Positions 57,157-60,467 are shown, counted from the stretch's first letter. The stretch: 64,000 nt of DNA from an uncultured Alphaproteobacteria bacterium (GCA_944391735.1 CALXUR010000001.1:14924-78923), one strand, 5' to 3'. The notes: generated by a model from the sequence alone, not told the origin. Made by a program: numbers and translations.

Positions 57157-58431
57157 CTATTTATGGCAATAGAACATATGGTTAGAGGATAAGTCGGAAA
57201 GACCAACTTGTCCATAAATACTGCTCACCCAGAACCCTGAACAATTATCCGCTTTTTTATCTAACCAATGAGCTGCATCTCCGAAATGTCCCCACATCAT
57301 ATGCGCACACACACGCTGTCCAAGTGTTCCATCCCAATCTGGACACGCCTCGTTCATAGAGGCTAAATGGGCACCAATCGCCTGACACCAATTTTTAGCC
57401 GCCCAGTAAGATAAGCGCATCCCCTCGGTATAATAAAAGGAATCTTGATTATCTGTTGTCTGCCATTCTATAATCTCTCCGATTTTTTGACAACTCCCTC
57501 GAAAATTAGTATATGAGCATGAAGTCCCTCCTGTTTTGGTTGCAAGAATTTGACAGAACTCATCTTCCTGACAATCCCGATTTGTTGTGCAGTTACCGGA
57601 AACATCAATACATGCCCCATTCTCACATCGTTGATACTCACCACAACAAATCGTTCCGCATTGATATTCGGATAAACACCGACAGACACCGTTTTGACAA
57701 CTTTGATTCCTCGGACATTCATAGTCGCCGGCACATGCGGTGGCCCCCTCCTCCAAACAATCCGCACAAGGCCTCAATTCTTTTGTAAAAACAAACCCCA
57801 TGGTCGTTTCCAATTCACCACAAGCCTCCGGATTGTCTTTCGTCACAACAACATCATCAGCCGTTATTTGAATGGGACGATCATAGCCGCTGTTGATAAT
57901 GTGACGACAGCTGGCCGACGAAACTTCCGTTACTTTGACTCGAAACAGCTGTGATCCCAATTTTTCTCCCGTTACGACAGAACTGCCCAGATTCTTTTCA
58001 TTTTCAAATTCGGTAGAAGACAGATCCCCGTTTGCAATCATCTGTTGAGAGTAAACGACAGAGCGTCGATTGACTTCGTTAATGATATTATTCGCCATCG
58101 CGCGTTCCATCGCCATATTATATCCTTTAGCCCCCAGAATGGCTAATAATCCCATCAAAGCCAAGACACCTAACATCTCCACCATTGATTTACCCGATTC
58201 GGAATCGTTTTTGGGACTTCCCTTTTTATGGATTCCCGTGCGCTCCTCTTCTTTCGTCATTCCCGTGCGCTCCTCTTCTTTCGTCATTCCCGTGCTCTGA
58301 CACGGGAATCCAGTAATACGTATATCCATTTTTATGGATTCCGGCTCGGAGGCCGGAATGACGGGGCGTGTATTTTCCGATTCGTTTTTAGCCGCTTTCG
58401 TATTGAGGGTAACCTTTTGTTTTTCCGTCAT
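57157..58431 (-). CDS. Type IV pilin-like protein with Cys-rich modules and a C-type-lectin-like C-terminal domain (start uncertain: 58431, 58287 or 58260)
   Basis: Prepilin-type motif 'G|KSMVEMLGVLALMGLLAILG' with Glu at +5. A Cys-rich stretch follows ('CADCLEEGATACAGDYECPRNQSCQNGVCRC...CENGACID..NCTTNRDCQEDEFC'). The C-terminus reads 'LSYWAAKNWCQAIGAHLASMNEAC...FYCHK'. Confidence 0.6.
   Translation of the reverse strand: MTEKQKVTLNTKAAKNESENTRPVIPASEPESIKMDIRITGFPCQSTGMTKEEERTGMTKEEERTGIHKKGSPKNDSESGKSMVEMLGVLALMGLLAILGAKGYNMAMERAMANNIINEVNRRSVVYSQQMIANGDLSSTEFENEKNLGSSVVTGEKLGSQLFRVKVTEVSSASCRHIINSGYDRPIQITADDVVVTKDNPEACGELETTMGFVFTKELRPCADCLEEGATACAGDYECPRNQSCQNGVCRCLSEYQCGTICCGEYQRCENGACIDVSGNCTTNRDCQEDEFCQILATKTGGTSCSYTNFRGSCQKIGEIIEWQTTDNQDSFYYTEGMRLSYWAAKNWCQAIGAHLASMNEACPDWDGTLGQRVCAHMMWGHFGDAAHWLDKKADNCSGFWVSSIYGQVGLSDLSSNHMFYCHK
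58223..58362. repeat. Cluster of short palindromic (REP/RPE-like) elements plus a 27-bp tandem duplication
   Basis: The unit cgctcctcttctttcgtcattcccgtg occurs at 58241-58267 and again at 58268-58294. Palindromes are attcccgtg/cacgggaat (58286-58309) and attccggc/gccggaat (58338-58359). The direct repeat tttttatggattcc occurs at 58223 and 58329. Confidence 0.85.
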
Positions 58432-58684
58432 AAAATCCTTCCTTTCAATGTTAAAAAATAACGGTCATTATTTTTTTACATTTTCGGAAAGATGCCCAAA
58501 ATACGCTCCTTTCTTGGAAATTCAATGAAAAAGTCCTTGCCAGACGATAGCCCTCTATGTTATAAAATCTATAACATTTTACTGACCCTTTTTTCGTTAT
58601 AATCCAGTACACCAAAAGCAAGAATATCCCTCTTAATGATAAACATGCTCTTTTAAAAGCTAAAAATTGTTATTTTAGGATAAA

Positions 58685-58880
58685 AAAAGAAAGGGGGAAG
58701 GAAGAAGCCCCCTTTCTCAAAACAGAAACACAGGAAGAAGTTTCTGTTTTACCGTCGGCATTTGAGTTTAAGGTCTATTAAAATTTCGCCGACGTTTTGT
58801 GATCTAACAGCTTATTCAGCCGCCGACCGCAAAAGTGTTCCATCAAAAATCAATCCCAAACTCATATCTCTCTCCTTAAC
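58685..58880 (-). ncRNA. Candidate small transcript: strong SD + 17-codon ORF, then three hairpins ending in an intrinsic terminator
   Basis: On the minus strand, AAGGAG (58877-58872) precedes an ATG at 58865, with the stop at 58812. Hairpins lie at 58753-58794, 58719-58750 (11 bp) and 58689-58716 (9 bp, GC-rich), the last followed by T7. Confidence 0.3.
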
Positions 58881-59226
58881 GTTATATAGGTAACAGGTTA
58901 TTTTTTTCAATTCTTTTTTGATAAAAAGCTTTGCTTTTTCGTCTATCCGTTCCCATATTAACTGTATAAAAAGTCGCCGTGATGAAGGGCGACTGGAAGT
59001 TGGAAACTACAAGAGAATATAGTGTTGTGTATTTGGGAAATTATCCCTTATTCCACGACCTTCCAGACGCATTTGCGGTTAAAAGGTCAGAGACCTTTTT
59101 CTCTTCAGTTTTCCAAAACCCGAATCAGGAACCACCCAACTCAGGTTCCTAAAATAGCATGATTTTTTTGAAGCGTCAAGTTTATTTTTATCAAAAAACA
59201 GATTTTTTTAATTTTTGAGATTTTCC

Positions 59227-59351
59227 GTTATGGTGGTGGCCGGACAAAGAAGCAGGGTAACAACAAAAGTAACATGCCACAGGAAGAAACAGCATTTTGA
59301 TTCACTTTTGTAATAGCCCCTCGCCATTCCGCGTCCGGCCGCCACCATAAC
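59227..59351. repeat. 19-bp imperfect inverted repeat enclosing 87 nt (structured RNA or MITE-like element)
   Basis: gttatggtggtggccggac (59227-59245) pairs with gtccggccgccaccataac (59333-59351), 18/19 complementary. The interior hairpin atgc/gcat carries the same cacaggaagaa motif as 58730-58739. Confidence 0.6.
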
Positions 59352-59386
59352 AAAAAAAAACGCCCCGTCCACAACACCGGCGTTTC
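59352..59386 (-). terminator. Minus-strand intrinsic terminator about 190 nt downstream of tolA
   Basis: The minus strand reads aacgccgg...cggggcgtt followed by T9. Confidence 0.55.
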
Positions 59387-59573
59387 AACACATTTTAATC
59401 ACTACTTTACGGGTATATAAATACCCAACACTTTTTCTTGTGATAATGAGGTTTCGACGCCCCGAAGCAGAGTTTTCTGTTCCTATTTTAGGATAACAGC
59501 AAAACAACCAAAAGTAAAGAGGATATTTAAAAATACTGTCAATTAATTTTTATTTCACACATTGAACGGTCAA

Positions 59574-60467
59574 TTAAAACACACCGCCGTCCATCGGATT
59601 AAAACGCAGATACAACTCTTTCCATGTGCCGTAATGCTCGGCGTATTTATCCGCCAATATCTTAAACGGAGATTCATCCTCTTTGGCATTACAAATCCAA
59701 ACAGCCCGCCGCGCACTTTCGGCAATGGCCCGAAAAGCAGAATCCGATTTCATATTTAAAATTCGAACATCACGAACCGTTCCGTCTTTATTGAGAGACG
59801 CCTGAATTTCAATAATCATATTGTCAACCCCTTCGGCACCGGCATCCACGTTCCACCACTTTTTCAGTTGATTCGCAATCAAATCCCGCTCCGAAATTGT
59901 CAAGACTTGGGAAAAACTACCTTCCGTTCCCCCTTCTATACCATCGTTTTGCCGTGGCAAATCATCCGGCTCCTCCGGAACAGGCGAAACCGGTGCTTGC
60001 CTCCGAACTTTTTCAACCGAGGCCAAAAGACTCTTCATATCATACGTCGGTTTAGCCGATTGTTTATTTTTTGATTTTGATACAGAGGACGGCTTATCCG
60101 ATTTTGGTTTTGATGTTTTTGGGGCTTGCGTTTTTTTCTTGGGTTCCACAACGGGAACAGCGTCCTTAACAGGAGGTTGCGGCAAAGGCTTGGGTGCTTC
60201 CGGTTTTGCCGCGCGCACCTGTGTCGGACGACTCTTTTCAACTTGAGGCGGTTTCGGCGGCTGAGGTTTCGGGGATTTTTTTAGTTTTGCCTGGGCTTTG
60301 GGCGGTAAGTTCGTTTTATCGGAAACTTGAACTTTTGTCAAATCAACCATTAACAAGGCCGGCGGCGCTTTATGTTCTTCCCAACGGGCAAGGGAAAAAT
60401 CCATAACCATTAAGGCCAAAACCACACCATGCAAAACAGCCGATGAAACAAATGATTTGGATGACAC
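59574..60467 (-). CDS. tolA: TolA-like protein
   Basis: An N-terminal TM helix, a long Lys/Pro-rich linker and a TonB/TolA-type C-terminal domain, downstream of tolQ-tolR. Confidence 0.75.
   Translation of the reverse strand: MSSKSFVSSAVLHGVVLALMVMDFSLARWEEHKAPPALLMVDLTKVQVSDKTNLPPKAQAKLKKSPKPQPPKPPQVEKSRPTQVRAAKPEAPKPLPQPPVKDAVPVVEPKKKTQAPKTSKPKSDKPSSVSKSKNKQSAKPTYDMKSLLASVEKVRRQAPVSPVPEEPDDLPRQNDGIEGGTEGSFSQVLTISERDLIANQLKKWWNVDAGAEGVDNMIIEIQASLNKDGTVRDVRILNMKSDSAFRAIAESARRAVWICNAKEDESPFKILADKYAEHYGTWKELYLRFNPMDGGVF

Follow-up and report, generated by a model that had tools for sequence, protein, structure and literature searches.

The minus strand of the window, the whole 64,000-nt stretch of DNA analysed here, carries at 58910–58682 a compact unit that we tentatively read as an independent gene for a non-coding sRNA of ~190 nt. 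It would be the stand-alone member of a lineage-restricted family of RNA modules, of the Hfq type and with CU-rich loops directed against ribosome-binding sites (RBSs). Transcription from a sigma70-like promoter would start near 58876, and the ~190-nt transcript would fold into four helices (P1–P4) and end at a terminator with a tail of seven U residues. The invariant CU-rich loops, UUCCUGU in P3 and CUUCUUCCUU in P4, would pair with purine-rich ribosome-binding regions and block the initiation of translation. The other members of the family are found as the 3′UTR and terminator of pilin-like adhesin genes.

To our knowledge, next to nothing is known of regulatory RNAs in uncultured gut Alphaproteobacteria with reduced genomes, to which the unit would contribute a new family of “pyrimidine-loop” riboregulators. 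The module is linked to pilus adhesins, a very large and fast-changing family, and may help to control which surface adhesins are displayed.

Position and anatomy of the unit

The host genome (G000) is a metagenome assembly of 1.0 Mb in 20 contigs, with a GC content of 43.8% and ~75% complete. Between tolA (59574–60467, minus strand) and a gene for a 424-aa pilin-like protein (57157–58431, minus strand) there is a gap of 1.1 kb without ORFs. The unit is one of three structured pieces in this gap, the others being a 125-bp element closed by a stem (59351–59227) and a further RNA unit (~59179–58968). Its features are listed below.

58905–58910, minus strand: −35-like box TTGAAA, the same in 7/7 variants of both lineages
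58883–58889, minus strand: −10-like box (C)TATATA, with CCTATAT unchanged in both lineages
58812–58877, minus strand: SD-like AAGGAG and 17-codon ORF (MSLGLIFDGTLLRSAAE), probably not translated
58795–58834, minus strand: P1, imperfect hairpin overlapping the 3′ end of the ORF, loop GAAUA; alike in the folds of every variant
58753–58794, minus strand: P2, 8-bp GC-rich stem CGUCGGCG/UGCCGACG with a 26-nt A/U-rich loop; from folding and covariation
58719–58750, minus strand: P3, 11-bp stem, loop UUCUUCCUGU (58739–58730) with the invariant core UUCCUG; from folding and comparison
58682–58718, minus strand: P4, intrinsic terminator, loop CUUCUUCCUU (58707–58698), U7 at 58688–58682; from folding and comparison

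An earlier note, made from the sequence alone, had pointed out the promoter-like boxes, the SD, the 17-codon ORF and the two CU-rich loops, and all of them are found on the minus strand where it had placed them. Read directly, TTGAAA (58910–58905) and TATATA (58888–58883) are separated by a spacer of 16 nt, and AAGGAG (58877–58872) precedes an ATG at 58865 that opens the ORF ending with TAA at 58814–58812. The hairpins of the note are there as well, its last two being P3 and P4, but folding gives four helices instead of three. The minus strand from 58880 to 58680 folds with −60.6 kcal/mol against a shuffle mean of −46.8 (z = −3.5), and 0 of 200 shuffled sequences did as well. The GC-rich P4 has a core of 58716–58689 that can be extended to 58718–58687 (9–11 bp) and is followed by U7, so that the 3′ end consists of a terminator hairpin and a U-tail of at least six residues, as is typical of Hfq-type sRNAs.

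Between the two species lineages the spacer of the promoter-like pair is identical at only 5 of 15 positions, whereas the boxes themselves are invariant in all seven variants. A consensus promoter scan did not list the pair, because TATATA lacks a T at position 6 of the hexamer. We infer that the unit is transcribed; judged from the −10 box TATATA, the predicted start lies near 58876, which is inside the SD-like AAGGAG.

Conservation and synteny

Homologues of the unit were found only in strains of the window lineage and in one sister species (the G007 lineage). They comprise seven distinct variants, five from the window lineage (94.6–98.8% identical) and two from the G007 lineage. A BLAST search of 40 relatives gave a single homologue, in the congener G007; identity is 76% across the 3′ 156 nt, and the place after tolA is the same. 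Further strain contigs were obtained with TolA relatives as handles. Synteny places the unit between tolA and an alpha/beta-hydrolase gene in both species lineages, while in other members of the genus the region 3′ of tolA is not conserved. When 80 genomes of the family were scanned for the terminator 18-mer with up to two mismatches, it was found in G000 and G007 only, and a 20-mer scan of JGI metagenomes gave a single 21-nt chance match. On these comparisons, the unit has evidently been retained since before the split of the two species.

The earlier note had also raised the possibility that the unit is a leader or attenuator of the pilin-like gene (57157–58431), which lies about 250 nt downstream. 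The gene is indeed close and on the same strand, and the module family is associated with pilin-like genes. Synteny contradicts this reading, however. The G007 lineage keeps the unit without the pilin gene and has the promoter of the hydrolase gene within ~60 nt of the terminator; in strains of the window lineage, the unit is followed by a pilin gene of 424 aa, one of 420 aa or a broken one. The ~200-nt 5′ region of the pilin gene is its own and recurs in paralogues on contigs C5 and C6, where the unit is missing, and no alternative anti-terminator fold is evident. The claim thus did not hold up, and we regard a leader function as extremely improbable.

The module as 3′UTR of pilin-like genes

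As the earlier note had advised, we searched for further copies. A covariance model trained on the orthologues of the unit only (R1) gave full-length matches at six other places, with 45–50 bits, the next best match having at most 14 bits. All six lie directly after the stop codon of pilin-like genes, five in G000 and one in G007. With a second model (R2), run over 80 genomes of the family, seven copies were found in G000, namely the unit, five 3′UTRs and one partial copy. G007 has four, of which the two that had no part in training (99 and 59 bits) directly follow pilin-like ORFs. The unit scored 176 bits and the 3′UTR copies 59–122 bits, the two untrained ones included, in a comparison where the E-values of home-made covariance models are rough and paralogues are not independent observations. 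R2 matches in other genera (24–32 bits) were rejected, as only the terminator was aligned and UUCCUG was missing. The search thus showed that several pilin-like adhesin genes of the two species have the module as their 3′UTR and terminator.

Throughout the family, unrelated P3 stems carry a constant loop core: UUCCUG is present with AAAACAGAAAC in the window unit, GGGUAGAAUU in the G007 unit, GGGGAUGGAU in the G000 3′UTR copies and GAGGAAAG in the G007 3′UTR copies. P2 is kept GC-rich via strand-swapped pairs, and P4 is always a terminator. The unit itself has the four helices P1–P4, UUCCUG in the loop of P3, a terminator in P4 and a full-length match to the model. Judged from sequence, it is the sole stand-alone copy in the family with a promoter-like element.

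Two copies have unusual surroundings. The partial one (P2 loop, P3 and P4; L104, G000:C10:14265–14375) overlaps, in antisense, the promoter and start region of a pilin-like gene of class I. The P2 loop of the module is thus the reverse complement of the pilin 5′ box of that class, and this copy is possibly a trace of an origin of the module by inverted duplication. At G007:C13:38931–39084 (L101), a pilin-like ORF continues into the 5′ part of the RNA module, and the boundary between gene and 3′UTR has therefore been reshuffled there.

Structural conservation and strand

Each variant was folded independently and gave the same P1–P4. The inner helix of P1, GGCGGCU/AGCUGUU, reads GGCGACU/AGUCGUC in variant L060. 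Between the window unit and the G007 unit the stem of P3 changes from AAAACAGAAAC/GUUUCUGUUUU to GGGUAGAAUU/AAUUCUAUCC by five double compensatory changes and one single change, and its loop retains UUCCUGU despite the near-total replacement of the stem. P4 with its loop and U-tail is 100% identical over 37 nt between the species; among the strains, L058–L060 have one A·C mismatch in this helix. The earlier note had reported an identical loop motif on successive hairpins. This is true of the window lineage, where the P3 and P4 loops of the unit have 9 nt in common (CUUCUUCCU), but the P3 loop of the sister species, UUCCUGU, shares only UUCCU with the P4 loop.

Covariation was counted over a model-guided alignment of ten family members, which was fitted to the structure and represents about four independent lineages; in it, 29 of 46 pairs have changes on both sides, against 13.5 in shuffled alignments and 3–8 when the partners were slid. 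Such double changes are seen at 10 of 16 pairs in P1, at 4 of 8 in P2 (with 95% of cells paired) and at 10 of 11 in P3. Over the whole structure 94.4% of cells are paired, compared with 79.8 ± 1.1 in shuffles. Cells with G-U outnumber those with A-C by 37:5 in the family and by 27:1 in the orthologues of the unit itself, and the U-run after P4 exists on the minus strand only. The folded strand is therefore the minus strand. The compensatory helices, invariant loops, G-U asymmetry and U-tail all support the view of the earlier note that the minus strand has a discrete unit here, from promoter to terminator, with conserved CU-rich loops of the “anti-SD” type.

The main rival to an sRNA gene is a module that acts in cis and at 3′ ends only. 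The unit would then be a displaced or retained copy of a pilin 3′UTR, serving as a terminator, insulator or stability element, for example as a barrier to transcripts that run on from tolA and the upstream RNA gene; there would be no role in trans, and the boxes would be incidental. In its favour, every other family member is a 3′UTR plus terminator that immediately follows the stop codon of a pilin-like gene. The terminator P4 is strong, the −10 box is imperfect and the predictions described below yield no specific target. However, the upstream RNA unit already has its own terminator ~55 nt before the −35 box. Selection acts on P1–P3 and on the loop of P3, whereas P4 alone would suffice for a terminator, and the −35 and −10 boxes are kept across species amid diverged sequence. 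Finally, no remnant of pilin-like coding sequence was found between tolA and the unit. We consider a purely cis-acting module rather unlikely; if it were one, the finding would be of local interest only.

The 17-codon ORF

In the window genome a good SD, AAGGAG, stands 6 nt before the ATG, and the earlier note had suggested a dual function, as an sRNA and as the message for the 17-aa peptide MSLGLIFDGTLLRSAAE. The variants argue against this half of its proposal. The SD reads AATGAG with an additional 1-nt deletion in L053/L055 and in L054/L056, and AAGGTG in L049, so that, of the five distinct window-lineage variants, it is destroyed in two and weakened in one more. In L058–L060 the peptide carries three residue changes (G4E, L5V and A16T) and the stop comes one codon earlier. 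The whole 5′ segment is unalignable in the G007 lineage, where no ATG and no ATG-initiated ORF are present at the corresponding place. In addition, the predicted start of transcription lies inside the SD. Both substitutions within the ORF of L049 are synonymous, as would be expected of a coding sequence, but they also maintain the pairing of P1. The ORF is thus not conserved; as judged from these sequences, it is probably not under coding selection and not translated, and a dual function can hardly be upheld.

Comparison with known sRNAs

An Rfam covariance scan, another step that the earlier note had advised, gave no family at threshold. Over the whole window nothing reached the gathering score for the unit, and in the region 58400–59600 at E ≤ 10 there were 22 matches, all sub-threshold and at chance level, with no alphaproteobacterial sRNA family among them. 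The best match over P3–P4 (58682–58763) was LhrC (RF00616), with 24.5 bits against a gathering score of 110 (E = 0.45).

In Listeria, LhrC has three redundant CU-rich sites, including one in its terminator loop, that pair with the purine-rich region before the start codon of the adhesin mRNA lapB (PMC4132741). The unit would be similar to LhrC1-5 of Listeria monocytogenes in being a short sRNA with CU-rich sites in a stem-loop and in the terminator loop. The two are not homologous: the motif of the unit is UUCCUG or CUUCUUCCUU and not UCCC, and the one comes from an alphaproteobacterium, the other from a firmicute. LhrC is also multicopy, but while its copies are tandem sRNA genes, the paralogues of the unit are mRNA 3′UTRs.

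The cuckoo RNAs consist of two to four adjacent hairpins, each with CCUCCUCCC in its loop (PMC4615179). Together with ar14, CcsR (RSs0680) and NfeR1 they share with the unit an alphaproteobacterial origin, adjacent hairpins, variable stems and pyrimidine-rich loops of anti-SD-like character (PMC4615179, PMC8034643, PMC10746234). The unit differs from them in that CCUCCUCCC is absent, that only two of its four loops are CU-rich and these are non-identical in the sister species, and that it is confined to two species lineages. CCTCCTCCC does not occur in 58680–58920. The earlier note was correct that the motif is different from this precedent: the unit, with the loops GAAUA, an A/U-rich 26-mer, UUCUUCCUGU and CUUCUUCCUU, is not a member of the cuckoo/ar14 family. 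In sX13 of Xanthomonas, C-rich hairpin loops are functional seeds against purine-rich motifs near ribosome-binding sites (PMC3771888). Like it, the unit would be a structured sRNA with seeds in its loops, but the motif differs and no similarity of sequence or model was detected.

By analogy, the unit resembles LhrC, cuckoo and sX13 in its architecture, i.e., variable stems, invariant pyrimidine loops that include the terminator loop, and a U-tail, and it is a member of none of them. The same analogy leads us, tentatively, to a mechanism of the anti-RBS sRNA kind. Its family is new, narrowly distributed and not in Rfam.

Among 3′UTR-derived or paralogous sRNAs, such as CpxQ, SroC and DapZ, the module ends mRNAs and may be a separate RNA that shares the terminator of the mRNA. 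The unit, in contrast, has a locus to itself and promoter-like boxes of its own, and is neither processed from nor nested in a pilin mRNA. The distinctive trait of its family is that the same module is both the 3′UTR of adhesin genes and a free-standing gene. It would be an unusually clear case of one RNA module as both mRNA tail and free-standing gene, with a bearing on the origin of sRNAs from 3′UTRs.

Pilin-like genes as candidate targets

Pilin-like genes number ~30 in the 1-Mb G000 and 21 in G007. These paralogues have unusual start regions, ACAGGAAAGGGAAAUG and GAAAGGAAGGAUUUUAUG, with …UUUUUACAGGAAAGGGAAAUG in class I and …UGAAAGGAAGGAUUUUAUG in class II. CAUUAAAUUUUUACAGGAAAGGGAAAUG occurs in eleven pilin-like genes, ACAGGAA being complementary to UUCCUGU, and UGAAAGGAAGGAUUUUAUG in five, AAGGAAGGA being able to pair with UUCUUCCUU. 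Among the 25 start regions with ACAGGAA, 11 belong to pilin-like genes, as do 5 of the 24 with AAGGAAG, but none of the ~100–126 with the canonical AAGGAGA or AAAGGAG. The P2 loop of the 3′UTR copies runs antisense to the 5′ box of class I, and for 42% of pilin 5′ regions the duplex energy lies below the 5% level of the background.

The pairing of the loops of the unit and its targets are what we infer from such complementarity. Enrichment for pilin start regions was weak: P3 gave p = 0.002 on paralogues that are not independent, and a control with reversed P4 sequence gave p = 0.006. Antisense local alignment of the unit with pilin 5′ regions scored 26, which is not above the 95% level of shuffles (27). 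The target prediction advised by the earlier note thus yielded complementarity of the loops to some pilin start regions but no specific target, with a reversed control equal to the enrichment. The best duplexes of the unit were with generic strong SDs; the top-scoring partner, a gene for a 153-aa secreted protein at G000:C10:21243, has a start region, CAGGAGGAA, that is conserved in G007, yet this is an ordinary strong SD. A methyltransferase-like gene (295 aa) was dropped as a candidate, having no orthologue in G007. Pilin-like mRNAs are the most attractive candidate targets, as an unproven lead only. Hfq is encoded in the host genome (PF17209 match at G000:C5:28512–28688, 63.5 bits against a cut-off of 27), whereas a search of G000 for ProQ/FinO found none.

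The complementarities could also be parts of a larger scheme, in which the UUCCUG module is a trans-acting silencer in the choice among the ~30 pilin-like paralogues, as an RNA-based mutual exclusion. Every pilin mRNA expressed from one class would bear 3′UTR loops able to pair with start regions of the others, namely the P3 loop UUUUUUCCUGU with UACAGGAAAGGG and the P2 loop with the class I 5′ box, to which it is antisense. From its place near tolA, the stand-alone gene would be a source of these loops that depends on no pilin gene. We hold this scheme to be unlikely.

Instead of pairing with RNA, the UUCCUG loop could be the site of a protein that handles pilin mRNAs, in their stability, localisation or translation, and the stand-alone copy would then be a decoy or sponge. 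The constancy of the loop over four unrelated stems in both species and the unspecific base-pairing targets would be compatible with such a protein. On the other hand, no candidate protein was identified, with the search for ProQ/FinO being negative, and CU-rich loops are the classical anti-RBS signature (PMC4132741, PMC4615179). A role as a protein-binding RNA seems distinctly unlikely to us, and an anti-RBS sRNA stays our preferred, if tentative, reading.

The eleven class I genes are preceded by a 5′ module of the form AAAAAGACTTCCTGTATTTT…(62 bp)…TTTTTACAGGAAAGGGAAATG (e.g., G000:C1:140877–140961, C2:19701–19785 and C3:18103–18187). It contains an 8-bp inverted repeat, TTCCTGTA/TACAGGAA, and has a single orientation in all copies of the G000 assembly. 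The repeat could sequester the start region in the RNA, or it could mark a small DNA switch.

If the unit acted at the level of DNA, the P3 palindrome with its TTCCTGT core would be a recombination site for the shuffling or insertion of pilin cassettes. The 8-bp core TTCCTGTA/TACAGGAA also flanks the 62-bp segment 5′ of the class I pilin genes, and the locus just 3′ of the unit is variable among strains and species. Nevertheless, the arms of P3 differ completely while its centre is kept, which is the opposite of a recombinase site and typical of an RNA hairpin, and the 37:5 asymmetry of G-U over A-C also speaks for RNA. The breakpoints between strains lie outside P3, and the 150 nt 3′ of the terminator are conserved. 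No flipped class I junction was found in the host genome or in species-representative genomes, where a scan of contigs gave one unrelated match only. Two class I pilin proteins, looked up as exact sequences, were not found on any other contig. We therefore regard a DNA element as very unlikely.

Neighbouring elements in the tolA–pilin gap

A second RNA unit with promoter and terminator lies directly upstream on the same strand (58968–59179), with TTGACG-17-TATTTT at 59179–59151. The ~185 nt that follow fold with −64.1 kcal/mol (z = −5.3). Its terminator, GUCGCC-CUUCAUCAC-GGCGAC-U5 (58993–58968), ends ~55 nt before the −35 box of the sRNA unit. At 83% identity in G007 this second unit is more highly conserved than the sRNA unit, and its core is weakly similar to sRNA-Xcc1 (24.9 bits against a gathering score of 53). 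Its fold is unlike that of 6S RNA (RF00013), of which none was detectable at E ≤ 1 in the 75%-complete G000 assembly; 6S RNA may be in the missing part of the assembly or too divergent for the model.

The 125-bp element further upstream (59227–59351, minus strand) is closed by a stem of 19 bp. Its inner hairpin, AUGCUGU-UUCUUCCU-GUGGCAU (59295–59274), displays the UUCUUCCUGUG string of P3. The element is found in all strains of the window lineage (96–98% identical) and is absent from the G007 lineage; BLAST gave no further copy in the genome, and it has no match to model R2.

On the other side of the unit, a segment of ~70 nt 5′ of the pilin-like gene (58481–58550) is substituted by unrelated sequence between window-lineage strains; inversion was ruled out, the segment being a replacement. 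The pilin-like gene itself, at 57157–58431, has 424 or 420 aa or is split into short ORFs, depending on the strain, and the whole pilin cassette is missing after the unit in the G007 lineage. The region just 3′ of the terminator looks like a hot spot of pilin-cassette turnover.
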